NCBI GenBank assembly: GCA_964604945.1
Contig: CAZSBK010000005.1
Location: forward strand, 3,185-67,184
Reading direction: 5' to 3'
Length of the DNA: 64,000 bases
DNA from: an uncultured Candidatus Solibacter sp.
GTDB lineage: Bacteria; Acidobacteriota; Terriglobia; Bryobacterales; Bryobacteraceae
Part shown: positions 4,172-10,057 of the stretch, piece by piece
Layout of the letters: each line of letters begins with the position of its first letter
Numbering within the stretch: the stretch's first letter is position 1
Program-made: the position numbers and the translations under genes
The notes under the pieces: model-generated
Seen by the model: the letters and a program-made list of their open reading frames with translations, nothing else
Databases searched by the model: none
Told to the model about the DNA's origin: nothing

Positions 4172-5326
4172 TTAGTCGAGCCGTAGGGGTGGCGGCAGCG
4201 GGCTGCCGAACTCATCCGATGTAAAGACCTCGACCCTGACGCCCAGTTCACGTTCGCCGCCGGGCTCGGCGATGGCGCGGTTAAGCGAACATTCCACCGT
4301 ATAGGCGTTGCCGGGCTCAACCGAACAGGACAGCGAGACTGTGTGCATACCGGCTTCGCCGATGATATAGGGTTTCAGCGCCACGCCATTGAGCCGAATC
4401 TGGAGGACCACCGGACCCTCGGCGATCAGATACGGGTGGGCAAAGAACTCGAATTGCAGGCGCGAGGCTTGGTGGAAGGCATGGAGTTTGGCCGAGAACT
4501 CGCGGCGCGTCCAGCGCAGCGAGCCATCCTCGATCGGATACCACCCATCCAGGGGTTGAAACGCTTCAAACTGGGGCAGGAACGAGGATCGGGCGAGGAC
4601 GTAGATGCGTTCGTCGCGGGCATCGGGCGACAGGGCGAACGGAGCGCGATGGGCACGTTCGGTGAATTCGGCAAGAATCTCCCAACCGGCGCGCGTGAGC
4701 AGGCGGCGCAGCGAGCGGCGGGTGAAGAGCCAGTAGTTTGTCGGGTCGAAGTTGATTTCTGTCCGGCCGGCGAGATAGACGGCGGGCAGGGGGAGCAAAT
4801 CGGTGAGCAGGGTGGAGAGCAGGCGCGTGCTCATGTAAAGGTAGGGCGAGCGGCGGGCGAGGTTTTCCAGCACGCAAAACGGATTCCGCAAGTGATAGAG
4901 GATCCCGAGCAGGAGCGTGAAGGCGTATTGGCCGGATGGAGGGTAGGGCGAGACGTCGAAGTTGATGTCGTGGATGCGGATGGCGGAATTCAGGGAACCA
5001 GCGAGCTGGCGGATTCCGTTCATGTAGTTGAAGTTTGTGGCCGGGTGGTCGATCGCGTCCACTTCATGGCCAAGCCGTTCGAACAGGAAGCTCATATGGC
5101 CGTCGGCGGCGCCGATGTCGAGCACCGGCAGGCCGTGTTTTGGTTCGGGCAGTCCGAGCCCGGCGGCATCGAGCAGGCGCTGGAGGCGCGGGACATTGGC
5201 CAGAATGTTGTAGGGATACCAGCCGTGCAATGGCGGCTCACCAGAACCCTGAATGCGCTCGATGTCGCCTTCCAGCCGCGCGCCTTCTGCCAGCAACGGG
5301 GCGTTCCGTATTGATTTAGGGTGCAA
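4172..5326 (-). CDS. Class I SAM-dependent methyltransferase with a C-terminal extension of about 130 aa
   Basis: Motif I VLDIGAADGHMSFLFERLGHEV and LLLGILYHLRNP. The track ORF extends to 5518 but would then overlap the DksA-like gene, so I place the start at in-frame TTG 5326 (LHPKSIRN...). Start uncertain. Confidence 0.65.
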   Translation of the reverse strand: MHPKSIRNAPLLAEGARLEGDIERIQGSGEPPLHGWYPYNILANVPRLQRLLDAAGLGLPEPKHGLPVLDIGAADGHMSFLFERLGHEVDAIDHPATNFNYMNGIRQLAGSLNSAIRIHDINFDVSPYPPSGQYAFTLLLGILYHLRNPFCVLENLARRSPYLYMSTRLLSTLLTDLLPLPAVYLAGRTEINFDPTNYWLFTRRSLRRLLTRAGWEILAEFTERAHRAPFALSPDARDERIYVLARSSFLPQFEAFQPLDGWYPIEDGSLRWTRREFSAKLHAFHQASRLQFEFFAHPYLIAEGPVVLQIRLNGVALKPYIIGEAGMHTVSLSCSVEPGNAYTVECSLNRAIAEPGGERELGVRVEVFTSDEFGSPLPPPLRLD

Positions 5327-5412
5327 GAGCCGACTATAACAAAGCGGGCTGCCGGCCCACCAAGCCCGTCCTGGCGACGCCGGCGGCCCTTTGGGAGGAG
5401 CAGAGAGAAGCC

Positions 5413-5748
5413 TCAGGCGGCGGCCCGTTCGAGACGTTCCTGGCAGCCTCGGCAGCGCCGGGCGTAGGGCACGGCCCTCAGGCGCGTCCGCGCGATGGGC
5501 TGCTCGCACTCCTCGCAAATGCCGTACTGGCCTGATTCGATCCGTTCCAGCGCGTCGACCACTTCGCGGTAGCGTGTCACGGCGAGATGGTGGTAGGTCA
5601 GCGACGCGTCGCGTTCGATGGCGGCCAGAAGACTGTCCACTGGATCAGCCAGGCTCTCGACATGGATTGGCGCGCGCTGCCGCAACTCCCGCGCGAGGCT
5701 TTCGCGCAGACCGGTGAGAGCGCGTTTGGCAAGTGTGTTTTGTTTCAT
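5413..5748 (-). CDS. DksA/TraR family C4 zinc-finger protein
   Basis: 111 aa from MKQNTLAKRAL. Contains CEECEQPI...(17)...CRGCQ four-Cys finger preceded by a coiled-coil-like region. Confidence 0.8.
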   Translation of the reverse strand: MKQNTLAKRALTGLRESLARELRQRAPIHVESLADPVDSLLAAIERDASLTYHHLAVTRYREVVDALERIESGQYGICEECEQPIARTRLRAVPYARRCRGCQERLERAAA

Positions 5749-5855
5749 TGCGATGGCTCCCAACCCCATGCTAGGGTAAATGGACGTTTTCGTTCGATCC
5801 TGAAAACAGGTGACAGGCGAACCGAAAACACACCACGCCAGAGGAGGCTCAACCG

Positions 5856-6290
5856 ATGAAAGAACAGAACTACGCCAACCACACTCGGCTTGCGGCTGGA
5901 TTCCATTTCGTGCTACTGCCCCTGCTGCTGCTGACCCTGATCGGGTCGGGCGTGAACCTTTACGGATCATGGGGAGACCATACGCGGTTTTACAGCGCCG
6001 CGCTGATCGTCGTCCTGACGTTCTGCGTGATCGTGGCCGCGGTATTTGCCCGCGTGTTCGCCCTCATGGCCCAGGACCGGGCGATCAAGGCGGAAGAGAA
6101 TTTCCGGCACTACCTGCTGACCGGCAAGCCGCTGGACCCGCGCATCACGGTGCGACAGATCATCGGCCTGCGGTTCGCGTCGGACGAAGAGTTCCCGGCC
6201 CTGGCGGCCAAGGCCGCCGAGGTGGGGACGAGCGAAGACGATATCAAGAAGTCGGTCAAGAACTGGCGCGCGGATCACTACCGGGTCTAG
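5856..6290 (+). CDS. Two-TM membrane protein, unknown function
   Basis: 144 aa. Two hydrophobic helices (FHFVLLPLLLLTLIG, ALIVVLTFCVIVAAVFARVFAL) followed by a soluble tail. Confidence 0.6.
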   Translation: MKEQNYANHTRLAAGFHFVLLPLLLLTLIGSGVNLYGSWGDHTRFYSAALIVVLTFCVIVAAVFARVFALMAQDRAIKAEENFRHYLLTGKPLDPRITVRQIIGLRFASDEEFPALAAKAAEVGTSEDDIKKSVKNWRADHYRV

Positions 6291-6622: not shown

Positions 6623-7474
6623 CTACCTGGTTGGTTTTGCGTTGGCGCGTGCTTGCATGGAGTCGAGCAAGCTCAGGAATCCTGCCATCAGCTTGTAGGT
6701 GTCGCGGTAGTTGTCGAAGCTTAGGTTCTCGGGCTGGTCCTGGTGGCTGTGCAGGTAGCGCATCGTCTCGGTGGTAATTGAGTGAACGTCGAGCGAGGGG
6801 ATCTTGGCGTTGGCGAACTCCTCATGATCGGAGGTCCCGACGCGTTCCGCGTTCATGCCCATCAGAGGGAGTTTCATGGCCTGTGAGAGTCGCCAGAGGA
6901 TATCGACGAGGCGCTTATCCGACGTGCTGACTCCGACTTTGGTCGGTGTCAGGCCAATCGTGTCGATGTTGATCATCGCCAGCGGTAACGGCCGCTTTTC
7001 GCGCTTCCATTGCTGGACGAAGTAGCGTGAGCCGTTGAGTCCGGATTCCTCCTCGGTGAAGCCAGCAAAGACGAAGGTGAGCGTCCTGGGGGACTTGGCG
7101 AGCCCCTCATACAGGCTTGGCAGGAGGGATGCGCCAGACCAGTTGTCGACGGCGCCACTGCCGATCTCGACATGGTCGAAGTGGGCGCCGACGACAACGG
7201 TTCCTTCGCCCGTTCCAGGCAGCGTGCAGATCACGTTAGGCAGCGCATGGCCCCTGACGCTCTGGCGCTGGAGTTGCCGGTCCTTGCAGCCGCTCTCCGC
7301 GAACAACGCTTCAAGTGTCTCCATCCGAGCCTTATTCTTTTCCGGGTTGGCGGCGAGACGTTGGCGGAGCCTGTCGTTGGCGGTGAATTCAATCCGCAGC
7401 CCCTGCGCGGACAGACGGGGCAGAACTGCCAAACAAAGAAGCGGAAGCACACGCCGGGCCAATTTCAAAGACAT
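6623..7474 (-). CDS. M28 family metallopeptidase (secreted aminopeptidase-like)
   Basis: Signal peptide MSLKLARRVLPLLCLAVLPRLSAQG. Contains VVVGAHFDHV, DNWSGASLL and FAGFTEEESGLNGSRYF motifs. Confidence 0.8.
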   Translation of the reverse strand: MSLKLARRVLPLLCLAVLPRLSAQGLRIEFTANDRLRQRLAANPEKNKARMETLEALFAESGCKDRQLQRQSVRGHALPNVICTLPGTGEGTVVVGAHFDHVEIGSGAVDNWSGASLLPSLYEGLAKSPRTLTFVFAGFTEEESGLNGSRYFVQQWKREKRPLPLAMINIDTIGLTPTKVGVSTSDKRLVDILWRLSQAMKLPLMGMNAERVGTSDHEEFANAKIPSLDVHSITTETMRYLHSHQDQPENLSFDNYRDTYKLMAGFLSLLDSMQARANAKPTR

Positions 7475-7564
7475 CAGGCCGTATTTTCTCAGATCAGCCG
7501 GGCAATAGTCAGTTCGCGGCGTGTGCTCAGGATGGGCAGAATGGATGCCGGCTGTCGAGCGCGG

Positions 7565-8071
7565 TCAGGGTGCTGAGGAAAGTCCAGGCCGATTCATGGC
7601 GCCGCGGCATTGAAGTGAGCCGCAGCGGCAGGGGTGGAGCGGATCGTTGCCGGTGATCTGGTAGTCGATCAGCAGTTCCTCGCCGTCGGCGATCCTCCGC
7701 AGGCTGACCATCCAGATGCGGCCTCCGTGCAACCGGGCCACGAGATTGGGTGAGCAGGAGTGATTGATGAACTCGGCGCCGCTGCCGCCGATGGCGCCGT
7801 CAATGAGTGTGCGCTTCCCGGCTACGAAAATGTAGATCAGCGGGCGGATGCTCCGCCGCCGGCCTTCGGCAAGTCCGATGCGCTCGCCCGTGTACTCGAT
7901 CACGCGCCGCCGGGAAGGAATGGGCTCAGCGGCGAAGACCCCCCACCGGTGAATGGGCGAAGCCGCGGCGCGCAACTCAAAACAGCATGCTGTCGGATCG
8001 ATCACCGGCTGCCGGTCCGGCCCAGCCGGCAACACGACCTCGCGTACGAATGCGGTCAGTTCGTCCGTCAC
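7565..8071 (-). CDS. SET-domain protein (putative protein-lysine methyltransferase)
   Basis: 168 aa. Contains FINHSCSPN, GEELLIDY and a post-SET Cys cluster CRCGSLQCRG. The GTG start overlaps the stop of the upstream gene (GTGA at 8068-8071). Confidence 0.85.
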   Translation of the reverse strand: MTDELTAFVREVVLPAGPDRQPVIDPTACCFELRAAASPIHRWGVFAAEPIPSRRRVIEYTGERIGLAEGRRRSIRPLIYIFVAGKRTLIDGAIGGSGAEFINHSCSPNLVARLHGGRIWMVSLRRIADGEELLIDYQITGNDPLHPCRCGSLQCRGAMNRPGLSSAP

Positions 8072-8628
8072 CAGCCGCCACTCTTGTAGCCGGGTACTTT
8101 GTACCCTGGCGGTCCTGCTTGTTTGTAGTCACCGGGCGTACCCGCCTGCTTGGTCGCAGGCGGGTAGCCTTCAGGGCTGGCCTGCTTGTAGTTGCCGGGC
8201 GAACCTGCCTGTTTGGTTCCACCGGGCCAGAGATCCTTGTACCCTGGCTGGCCGGCCTGTTTCCAACCAGGTATCTTGAGATCCTTATATCCCGGCGGTC
8301 CGGATTCCTTCTTGTAGCCGGCCGGCGACTTGGGAAACGACGCTGCCGGCGGCATGGGTTGATCCGGGTAAGGATCAAACTGTTGAAGCCGCGCCAGCGT
8401 GGGTCCTCCCGGATCCACACGGCCATCGGGACTGCTAAGCGAGCCCCGCTGGAAATCCGAGATGGCGGCCATCGTTTTCGGGCCCGCGATTCCATCAACG
8501 ACCAACTCGGGCGAGGGCCCGCCCTTGCTCGTCGGGACACAGTTCAGCAAATACTGAACGGTCATCACATCCTGGGGTAGAACGTTTTGTCCGCCTCGTC
8601 CGACAGAAAAACGAATAGATTTGGGCAT
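8068..8628 (-). CDS. Peptidoglycan-binding-like domain protein with a C-terminal Lys/Tyr/Pro/Gly tandem-repeat tail
   Basis: N-terminus VQYLLN...VVDGIAGPKTMAAISDFQ (PG_binding_1-like). C-terminal repeats PGYKDL, TKQAGSPGNYKQA, TKQAGTPGDYKQAGPPGYKVPGYK. GAGGAGG RBS before the ATG. No signal peptide seen. Confidence 0.7.
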   Translation of the reverse strand: MPKSIRFSVGRGGQNVLPQDVMTVQYLLNCVPTSKGGPSPELVVDGIAGPKTMAAISDFQRGSLSSPDGRVDPGGPTLARLQQFDPYPDQPMPPAASFPKSPAGYKKESGPPGYKDLKIPGWKQAGQPGYKDLWPGGTKQAGSPGNYKQASPEGYPPATKQAGTPGDYKQAGPPGYKVPGYKSGGW

Positions 8629-8845
8629 GCGCCCCTCCTCTGCATCCAGCTTGGGCTCAGTCTAAGGGTGAAACAGATGGCCTGTCAATCGGTCAGAGCG
8701 CCGAGTTTGTTGAGTGAGAGCCGGAGCCAGAGCGAGAATGCGCTTGAAACGGGTCGCCTTTGGTTCGTTTGGGCGGCGGCGTGCCCTAGCTCGACTGTCG
8801 GCTTCGTCCGGGCGCCGCGGTGGATGAGGAAGATGCCGTGGCCTG

Positions 8846-10057
8846 CTAGCGGGCTGTCTGAGACTCGGGGCGGACGCGCCGCCACGGGCCGGGAGAGAAT
8901 GATCTGAAATCGATGCGCGCCGCGGCAACGCTTACGCCGGCGATCTCGACGCGGCCCAGATCGCGTGTGCCCAGACCCTGTTGCTCGGCCAGCAGAAGCG
9001 TGGAATCGCAGCCTTCGAATGGCATCTGCCGGTGTCCGGCCATCGGGTCGAAGCCCATCAGGGCGGCACCGACGGCGTCGGTGGAGACAGGGTTCAGACC
9101 GGCTACGAGCACGCCCGGCTTGATGTGGCGCGCCGCGCTCACCCAGCCGCCCTCTCCACCAGCCATACCCTCGATGCCGTCGATGATGGAGAGATGGATC
9201 GGGACGGCGGCGCAGATGTCGGTGACGATGCGAGGCACGCGCCAGCGGTCCTCGCGCGGCGAGGCCGGGTCGCGCTCCTGCGGTGCGCTCAGCGAGGGGC
9301 CGCGTGCCCCCTGGTGAAGGATGGTTCCGCGGCCGCCCGAGGCGTCAGGCGACGGCTCGTCCCGGCCGGCCTGGTCTCCATAGATAGTGACCGGCGTGAT
9401 GCCGAACATATTCTTCAGCGACAGGGTGATGCCGCACGTGGCATGTTCCTTCATTTTGGCGATCGACACCATGACGTCACATTCGTCGTAGGCATGGTTC
9501 AGATCGAAGCCGGGGAAGACCAGCCCGCCGCCGGGAACAACTCTCCTGTGATACCGCTTGCCGCGGCCGAGGACATTGGTATTTTCCATCTCCACGCGAC
9601 GGCCGGCGTTGATCAACCTCAGCGGATCCCAACCGGCGTCGTACATGAATTCTTCGAGCGGATCACCGCAGGCGAAGCACCCCTCCAACACGCGTATTCG
9701 CGTAGCGCCCGCGTCGGTTATGAGCCGTATGGCGGCGCCGGCGACATCGGGGTGGGTGTAAGCGCTGCGCTCAATCGGCACGTTACCAATCCGCTGGCGG
9801 GGACCTCCCGTGAGGTTAAGCTTGATGCCAACAGTCTTGCCCTTCACGAGCCGGCCAATGCCCCCAAGCTGGTCGAACATGATTCGCATGGCGTTGTAGG
9901 GCGCCTGGGCATACTCAGCGCAGCGAGCGACGCTCACCCGCGCCGCGGGGGCGGCAGGGTCAGACCAAGCGCGGGCGGCTGCAGTCACGCCGATTCCCGA
10001 TCGAAGCCACTGGCGGCGGCCTATGGCGCGGTTGCGATCTGGCGGGGCGGGCGTCAT
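8846..10057 (-). CDS. DUF362 domain protein with Tat-type leader
   Basis: RRQWLRSGIGVTAAARA leader. Contains KGKTVGIKLNLTG, VSIAKMKEHATCGITLSLKNMFG and HLSIIDGIEGMAGGEG, as in DUF362 proteins. Confidence 0.7.
   Translation of the reverse strand: MTPAPPDRNRAIGRRQWLRSGIGVTAAARAWSDPAAPAARVSVARCAEYAQAPYNAMRIMFDQLGGIGRLVKGKTVGIKLNLTGGPRQRIGNVPIERSAYTHPDVAGAAIRLITDAGATRIRVLEGCFACGDPLEEFMYDAGWDPLRLINAGRRVEMENTNVLGRGKRYHRRVVPGGGLVFPGFDLNHAYDECDVMVSIAKMKEHATCGITLSLKNMFGITPVTIYGDQAGRDEPSPDASGGRGTILHQGARGPSLSAPQERDPASPREDRWRVPRIVTDICAAVPIHLSIIDGIEGMAGGEGGWVSAARHIKPGVLVAGLNPVSTDAVGAALMGFDPMAGHRQMPFEGCDSTLLLAEQQGLGTRDLGRVEIAGVSVAAARIDFRSFSPGPWRRVRPESQTAR

Follow-up and report, generated by a model that had tools for sequence, protein, structure and literature searches.

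The window analysed here is a stretch of 64,000 nucleotides (nt) from contig CAZSBK010000005.1 of an uncultured Candidatus Solibacter sp. On its minus strand lie two consecutive genes, the upstream one encoding a partner protein of 186 amino acids (aa), in which a folded N-terminal domain (the head) is followed by a low-complexity region (the tail), and the downstream one encoding a SET-domain protein (Table 1). The pair is a real, widespread and conserved module, and the adjacency of its two genes is not due to chance. From its sequence, it is plausibly a SET lysine methyltransferase with a dedicated partner that may also be its substrate.

Both open reading frames (ORFs) were recovered where a first-pass annotation, made from the letters of the window alone, had placed them, together with all of the motifs that it listed (FINHSCSPN, GEELLIDY, CRCGSLQCRG and VVDGIAGPKTMAAISDFQ). 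The partner protein is also represented by an identical database entry, P0001. The promoter candidate upstream of its gene matches the consensus at 10 of 12 positions and is the sole such site within 7300-9000. The GTGA overlap from which coupled translation had been proposed is present in the window, but it is not a general trait of the family, since the two genes overlap in only 10 of 45 homologous pairs and are separated by a median of 20 nt.

The GC content at third codon positions (GC3) is 0.64 in the partner gene, compared with 0.78 in the SET gene and 0.75-0.78 in the neighbouring genes. Behind the low value may lie an unusual codon usage in the tail, or else a different history. It is not decisive for the reading frame of the partner gene, which is settled by homologs: the minus-strand frame is accepted as coding because more than 140 of them keep the same architecture. 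The low GC3 and the long ORFs on the opposite strand are what could be cited for an antisense-strand artefact or a fortuitous adjacency. Set against the homologs, the 318 genomic loci at which they occur, the association with SET in both search directions and the natural fusions described below, this reading is effectively refuted, and we consider it practically certain to be wrong.

Table 1. Features of the partner-SET locus, in positions of the window.
Feature	Position	Strand	Basis
Partner gene	8068-8628	minus	ORF, 186 aa, ATG start
SET gene	7565-8071	minus	ORF, 168 aa, GTG start
GTGA overlap (partner TGA stop 8068-8070, SET GTG start 8069-8071)	8068-8071	minus	Read from sequence
Sigma-70-like promoter candidate, TTGACA-18 nt-TAGACT, 5′ of the partner gene	8659-8688	minus	Consensus match only
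GGAGG ribosome-binding site, 5 nt ahead of the partner ATG	8634-8638	minus	Read from sequence
Partner head, aa 1-95: PG_binding_1-like, three-helix; near-invariant Lys3, QYLLNCVP, DGRVDPGG	8344-8628	minus	Pfam, 1LBU profile match, AlphaFold2, conservation
Partner tail, aa 96-186: disordered Gly/Pro/Lys/Tyr, PG(x)[YW]K motifs, C-terminus KSGGW	8071-8343	minus	Composition, AlphaFold2
SET N-terminal extension, aa 5-19, LTAFVREVVLPAGPD; marks the partner-linked subclade	8015-8059	minus	Co-occurrence of motif and partner; low AlphaFold2 confidence
SET catalytic core, aa 43-138, including IHRWGVFA, NHSCSPN, ELLIDY	7658-7945	minus	Pfam SET, Set1/MLL alignment, Foldseek (homolog P0386)
Post-SET Cys cluster C148-x-C150-x4-C155; with C110 of NHSC, predicted zinc site	7607-7630	minus	Sequence, Set1 alignment

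Conservation of the pair and natural fusions

A scan of 185,579 species-representative genomes with the partner protein returned 318 loci, 80 of which were fetched for neighbourhood reading. Among these, a SET gene lies directly downstream in 46 of the 50 partners that carry the QYLLNC motif and have enough downstream DNA. The paired hosts span at least six phyla, including Acidobacteriota, Gemmatimonadota, Planctomycetota, Gamma- and Betaproteobacteria and one metagenome-assembled genome (MAG) labelled Deltaproteobacteria, and they include a cultured organism, Thermomonas mangrovi 2C3345 (locus L013). In the reciprocal scan from the SET side, which covered metagenome loci, the partner was found upstream of all seven SET genes with the N-terminal FVREV extension and of none of the 37 without it. 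In 24 of 68 metagenome loci, the SET genes of the partnerless sister clade (loci L096-L164, for example L096:659-1597:+) follow a malate/lactate-dehydrogenase-like gene (MRNKVTVVGAGNVGAS...) at a distance of ~1.1-1.4 kb, a conserved neighbourhood quite unlike that of the partner-linked clade. Absence of synteny in relatives had been named as grounds for abandoning the idea of a linked pair; the pair is instead kept across phyla, in both search directions and in fusions.

The genes that flank the pair differ between lineages, and all-against-all clustering of the neighbouring ORFs at the fetched loci yielded no third conserved gene. The M28 peptidase and DUF362 genes adjacent to the pair were considered as members of the module and rejected, as they are local to the window. 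Beyond the M28 peptidase gene lie three ORFs, Methyltransf_23 (4172-5518) and a DksA/TraR zinc finger (5413-5970) on the minus strand and DUF6526 (5856-6290) on the plus strand; as listed, the DksA ORF overlaps both of its neighbours, and its true start is probably further downstream. A RuBisCO_large-family gene stands directly upstream of the pair in Thermomonas mangrovi (L003:6673-7914) and on a contig from a related metagenome sample (L004:561-1802). The plant Rubisco methyltransferase LSMT is itself a SET enzyme. A link between Rubisco and the pair was nevertheless discarded, because the fetched loci show no recurrent cluster of neighbours of this kind. The first-pass annotation did not recognise the arrangement as a described system, and no description of a SET/partner pair was found in the openly searchable literature, subscription-only papers lying outside that search.

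Natural fusions of the head to SET occur in at least seven protein clusters (P0379, P0380, P0381, P0386, P0390, P0400 and P0352), and those outside the lineage of the query fusion are only 42-50% identical to it. Both arrangements can be found in one assembly: in GCA_963852695.1, contig CAWKUA010000003.1 carries a fused gene (L165:5001-5885) and a split pair (L167:3507-4549) ~830 kb apart. Several other MAGs have two or three head-containing loci each. Judged by gene architecture, the fusions are classic Rosetta-stone evidence of a physical or functional link between head and SET. Some of the fused proteins are extremely depleted in Lys: P0390 (289 aa) has apparently none when read by eye, and P0386 (267 aa) has exactly one, Lys3.

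The SET enzyme and the two parts of its partner

The SET protein matches Pfam PF00856 well above threshold (E = 3e-18, 66.5 bits, cut-off 22.4). Its closest solved relatives by sequence are Set1/MLL SET modules (E = 2e-19), with about one third of the residues identical over the SET core, and a Foldseek search with the modelled homolog P0386, a natural fusion, retrieved the SET domains of MLL1/3/4 (template modelling score ~0.7, 32-36% identity). The cofactor and catalytic motifs, namely the GxG-like HRWGVFA, NHxCxPN and ELxxDY with the catalytic Tyr, are all present, align with those of Set1 and are invariant in alignments A3 and A8. Likewise, C148, C150 and C155 of the post-SET zinc cluster are present together with C110, and their Cys columns are invariant in the same two alignments. 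The protein is thereby predicted to be a lysine methyltransferase with complete SET and post-SET parts and with the MLL/SET1 family as its nearest kin, and it looks active at the level of sequence and fold. Its subclade is marked by an N-terminal 'TAFVREVxLPGGP' extension, whereas partnerless SET proteins start directly at 'PRIDP..CFRL'. Against the NCBIfam model AnkI/LegAS4 it reaches 15.8 bits (cut-off 550), and with this low score, free-living hosts and neither ankyrin repeats nor nuclear localisation signals it falls outside the secreted SET nucleomodulins (RomA/LegAS4, NUE, BtSET). Four longer SET homologs (P0395, P0409, P0411 and P0426; 312-328 aa) match only the SET half of the query, have ~140-160 extra residues and carry Pfam PF00856 and PF21549, and so represent a further architecture of this SET family.

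The head of the partner scores just above the threshold for Pfam PG_binding_1 (PF01471; E = 2.5e-5, 24.8 bits, cut-off 23), and homologs of the partner reach 35 bits. A profile of the head family matches the PG_binding_1 domain of 1LBU (E = 1.4e-5), and AlphaFold2 models three helices (residues 18-29, 50-63 and 76-82) with a predicted local distance difference test (pLDDT) score of 90-98. The peptidoglycan-binding-like fold suggested by the first-pass annotation is borne out by these results, narrowly in the case of Pfam. The suggested lack of a signal peptide also holds, as the protein starts with a hydrophilic sequence (MPKSIRFSVGRGG) that is conserved from Met1 onward and modelled inside the fold. 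Conservation extends along the head at a mean column identity of 69%, with the motifs MPKxIxGSVG, QYLLNCVP, ELxVDG..GPKT and DGRVDPGG.

The head belongs to a large subfamily of ~554 clusters (50% identity) at E<=1e-10, in which some large proteins carry 2-13 tandem copies. In relatives without SET, the head is N-terminal to Peptidase_C70 (AvrRpt2-like), CHAP, Peptidase_M15_4, M35-like or PAAR-like modules. On the members tested, Pfam confirmed Peptidase_C70, CHAP and Peptidase_M15_4 and gave a weak match to Aspzincin_M35; the PAAR-like 'CPHGG' and HExxH modules were read by eye. These fusions are consistent with the head being a genuine wall-directed module. Heads with Arg3 in place of Lys3, fused to other modules and lacking a signal peptide, are found at L049, L050, L062-L065, L067, L070, L072, L077, L080, L081, L083 and L084.

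The same fusions could also point to a secreted effector or conflict system, in which the head would mark proteins for Sec-independent export. The SET protein would in that case serve as an immunity or chaperone-like partner, or else be exported itself and attack the proteins of another organism as an effector. The bacterial SET proteins known from pathogens are indeed secreted effectors (PMC3980110), and a variable C-terminus followed by a small downstream gene is reminiscent of toxin-immunity pairs. However, genes for type VI secretion, contractile injection, phage tails or any other secretion system show no recurrence around head-containing genes, and among 117 proteins neighbouring the SET-less relatives no Pfam family occurs more than twice. 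PADLOC matched no defence system at the locus, a scan of viral contigs for the head domain was empty, and the sole PHROGs match was the peptidoglycan-binding module of an endolysin. A phage or defence origin was rejected on these grounds, and the locus likewise lacks the marks of toxin-immunity, polymorphic-toxin or anti-phage systems. The hosts belong to lineages that live freely in soil, water and sludge, the LegAS4/AnkI score is far below its cut-off, the tail has no enzymatic or toxin-like domain, and a fully conserved catalytic SET would be unexpected in an immunity protein. An effector or conflict role is in our judgement highly unlikely.

The tail of the window protein (91 aa) contains 18 Gly, 15 Pro, 13 Lys (~14%), 8 Tyr and no Arg. 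It has seven P-G-(x)-[YW]-K motifs, its lysines are spaced 1-12 residues apart, mostly 5-9, and its AlphaFold2 pLDDT of 32-45 predicts disorder. The K-Q-A-G-x-P-G-x-Y-K repeat originally described here exists as a degenerate repeat at the peptide level but not at the DNA level, where Tandem Repeats Finder detected no tandem repeat in the tail-coding region. Across lineages the tails cannot be aligned, and examples of their repeat units are KDPFGK, GGQYPPGGAKGG, PGYKQ and KGGGYGGQAA. They have a median length of 94 aa, a composition of 29.5% Gly, 11.7% Pro, 10.9% Lys, 0.7% Arg and 0.8% Glu, a peak of Lys spacing at 5-10 residues, and usually a G-K-[GS]-[FW] C-terminus. The Lys/Tyr repeat is therefore not the conserved SET-linked element it had been taken for: the head and the SET N-terminal extension are conserved, Tyr is local to the lineage of the window, and other tails use Phe, Trp or Gly. 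Nor is a chromatin-like role of the partner upheld, since no DNA-binding domain was found in it and its basic tail is rich in Gly and Pro, Lys making up ~11% of the tails of the family.

Long tails of 200-280 aa that are Ala/Lys/Gly-rich and helical-looking instead of Gly/Pro-rich occur at L014, L020 and L024 and in P0016, P0032 and P0084. L020 and L024 are SET-linked, and L014 has no SET gene within 3.2 kb downstream. In a Candidatus Solibacter homolog (L006:4001-5140), the tail-coding region is broken by a run of N (read as X), an assembly gap with near-identical HPGHKGGYKQTGPPGYKDATPPGYKDYG units on either side. It is an indication that the repeats of a tail can reach considerable length and make assemblies collapse or break.

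Candidate substrates of the SET enzyme

The best explanation of the cassette is a self-contained writer and its partner, encoded by two genes in the window and by a single fused gene in some lineages. The partner would be made in the cytoplasm without a signal peptide, with a head and, in most lineages, a disordered tail that presents Lys every 5-10 residues. The SET protein, as a predicted S-adenosylmethionine (SAM)-dependent enzyme, must act in the cytoplasm as well. The strict co-occurrence and recurrent fusions suggest that the head and the SET N-terminal extension hold the two proteins together. SET with SAM would then methylate many tail lysines in a loose P-G-x-K-x-G context, and possibly Lys3. 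More speculatively, methylation would keep the positive charge and alter hydrogen bonding, cation-pi behaviour, protease sensitivity and amine reactivity. If the head truly binds peptidoglycan, a role of the methylated partner at the cell wall is possible. An adhesive or wall-associated function of the repeat, which the first-pass annotation had also raised, would have to do without a signal peptide and without linked secretion genes, as neither was found. To this reading, in which SET docks on the head through its extension and multiply methylates the tail lysines, possibly with Lys3, we assign an even chance of being correct.

Lysine is strongly preferred over arginine in the tails. The ratio K/(K+R) is 0.80 in tails, compared with 0.42 in heads and 0.32 in the other genes of the window, and the window tail has 13 Lys to 0 Arg. 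Since these Lys-rich, Arg-poor tails occur in genomes of 60-65% GC, they argue for selection on lysine chemistry and not on mere charge. The lysines also share a local context. When 42 non-redundant tails were compared with within-tail shuffles, Pro was enriched at position -3 from Lys (0.31 vs 0.12, in 34 of the 42 proteins), Gly was enriched at -2 and +2, Pro was excluded at +/-1 and acidic residues were depleted. Such a context could be a loose motif, readable by a single enzyme family in tails that are otherwise unrelated. The enzymes themselves are nearly devoid of lysine: the median Lys count is 1 in partner-linked SET cores, with a K/(K+R) of 0.10, and 7 in those of the partnerless sister clade, whose ratio of 0.32 is the background level (Mann-Whitney p ~5e-13, kinship and GC ignored). 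The window SET enzyme contains 1 Lys and 20 Arg. This pattern fits the avoidance of self-methylation by an enzyme of relaxed specificity.

Several observations weigh against the tail as the substrate. The tail is not universal, nor can it be the sole target, because three partners are tail-less (L046, L048 and L054; the Burkholderiales versions have 101-102 aa), two others have helical Ala/Arg/Glu tails almost free of Lys (L052 and L071), the fusion P0390 apparently has no Lys at all, and all of these stay linked to SET. The head is far better conserved than the tail, as would be expected if the head were the functional partner of SET, and an enzyme is not usually made in equimolar amounts with its substrate or fused to it, both of which suggest a stable complex. 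AlphaFold2 gave well-folded domains and no confident interface, either for the concatenated window pair (predicted template modelling score, pTM, 0.42) or for the natural fusion P0386 (pTM 0.59), and the FVREV segment has a pLDDT below 50. The mean GC of partner-linked metagenome loci is 0.65 and that of partnerless loci 0.60, which may bear on the correlations of both Lys3 and SET lysine content with the partner. The idea of a dedicated substrate, put forward in the first-pass annotation, is thus indirectly supported by tails that use Lys and not Arg, by the shared context of these lysines and by the Lys-poor enzymes, and is weakened by the tail-less and Lys-free variants that remain SET-linked.

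The persistence of the association in partners without a tail, in those with Lys-free tails and in the Lys-free fusion would be accounted for by a holoenzyme, in which the head targets or activates SET as its subunit, much as accessory subunits do for MLL-type SET enzymes. The protein methylated by this complex would be another one (of the cell envelope, for instance, or elsewhere in the cell), and the tail would be an accessory polycationic tether or a decoy. In such a complex the head would naturally be the conserved SET-linked element, and coupling at 1:1 and recurrent fusion would be fitting. MLL SET enzymes depend on partner proteins for their activity, and they are the nearest structural relatives of the window enzyme. 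What a holoenzyme leaves unexplained is the strong preference of the tails for Lys over Arg, the common local context of the tail lysines, and the restriction of Lys loss to partner-linked SET proteins; no candidate gene for a third-party substrate is conserved nearby. We regard it as the main rival and a serious possibility, with perhaps one chance in a few.

A narrower target within the partner is also conceivable, as methylation of lysines near the N-terminus is known in EF-Tu and ribosomal protein L11, where it is carried out by other enzyme classes. SET might methylate only the near-invariant Lys3, the tail having an unrelated role. Of 46 SET-linked partners, 45 have Lys at position 3, where Arg prevails in the SET-less relatives (kinship and GC ignored); this also speaks indirectly for Lys3 as a target beside the tail. 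Lys3 is the sole Lys of the head in the tail-less L046 and L054, and it is the sole Lys of the entire L046 protein and of P0386, where GPKT has become GPRT or GPQT. On the other side, L039 (MPR) and the fusion P0390 (Gln at this position) lack Lys3 and are nonetheless SET-linked, the K/R split could be a clade marker, and AlphaFold2 packs residues 1-10 of the window protein onto the domain (pLDDT ~90), so that Lys3 may be structural. The Lys composition of the tail and the scarcity of Lys in the enzymes would also be left unexplained, and Lys3 as the only target is unlikely.

Finally, the head might bind peptidoglycan or its cytoplasmic precursors, and the head-SET unit, as a targeting module joined to a methyltransferase, might place its methyl groups on the free amine of a stem-peptide diamino acid, meso-diaminopimelate or Lys, with UDP-MurNAc-pentapeptide or lipid II as the acceptor and the tail serving as a competing or regulatory pseudo-substrate. 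This would explain why a PG_binding_1 head is found in the cytoplasm, why the head is the conserved element and why Lys-free fusions exist. It would also make the protein the first SET enzyme to act on a non-protein substrate, with a new bacterial cell-wall modification as its product. We rate its chances as very slim.

What is established on the substrates and roles of SET genes comes essentially from a few pathogens and archaea and hardly from the many such genes of free-living bacteria. For one large SET subclade, the cassette supplies a candidate partner or substrate that is fixed by the genetics. If methylation of the tail were confirmed, the pair would amount to a histone-tail writer and its substrate in minimal bacterial form, with a disordered, Lys-patterned tail encoded beside its own methyltransferase, and a model for how multi-site lysine methylation tunes a low-complexity polycation. 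Should the head bind peptidoglycan, lysine methylation would be tied to the cell envelope. The system offers practical handles in its small proteins (168 and 186 aa), its natural fusions and its cultured host.

Comparison with known systems

Small SET enzymes that act on Lys-rich basic proteins are known from other microorganisms (reviewed in PMC3980110), and the first-pass annotation drew its analogy with them. Methanosarcina Go1-SET acts on MC1-alpha, and Chlamydia cpnSET/NUE acts on Hc1-like proteins or host histones. These substrates are DNA-binding chromatin proteins, whereas the window partner has a head of the cell-wall-binding type and a Gly/Pro-rich tail. To our knowledge, the substrates of Go1-SET and cpnSET/NUE are not defined by a conserved adjacent gene, unlike the partner and SET genes described here, which are adjacent or fused.

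In the mycobacterial protein HBHA, lysine methylation is linked to protease protection. HBHA and the laminin-binding protein carry a multiply methylated, Lys-rich low-complexity domain at the C-terminus and are located at the surface without a classical signal peptide (PMC8467707). Like the partner, they consist of a folded N-terminal part followed by a Lys-rich low-complexity C-terminus. There is no homology, however: the repeats of HBHA are Lys/Ala/Pro-rich and bind heparan sulfate, and its methyltransferase is neither a SET enzyme nor encoded as a conserved neighbour. Diatom silaffins are Gly/Ser/Lys/Tyr-rich cell-wall proteins with heavily N-methylated lysines, for which SET enzymes have been proposed as writers. 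Here there is resemblance only, as silaffins are eukaryotic, depend on the secretory pathway, serve in silica formation and are not encoded in an operon.

The head of the partner matches the family of PG_binding_1 modules found in endolysins and cell-wall hydrolases (1LBU, phiKZ gp144). In modular endolysins, as in the SET-less relatives of the head, PG_binding_1 is N-terminal to a CHAP or M15 hydrolase domain. The window partner differs in having no hydrolase domain, in carrying Lys3 and QYLLNCVP, and in being coupled to a SAM-dependent enzyme.

The best sequence and structural matches of the enzyme itself are with SET1/MLL (KMT2), with which it shares the NHxCxPN, ELxxDY and CxCx4C motifs, and MLL enzymes also need bound partner proteins. 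In contrast to these, the window SET is a stand-alone bacterial protein that is associated with neither WRAD partners nor histones, and it is distinguished by its FVREV extension, its almost complete lack of Lys and a partner with a PG_binding_1-like head.

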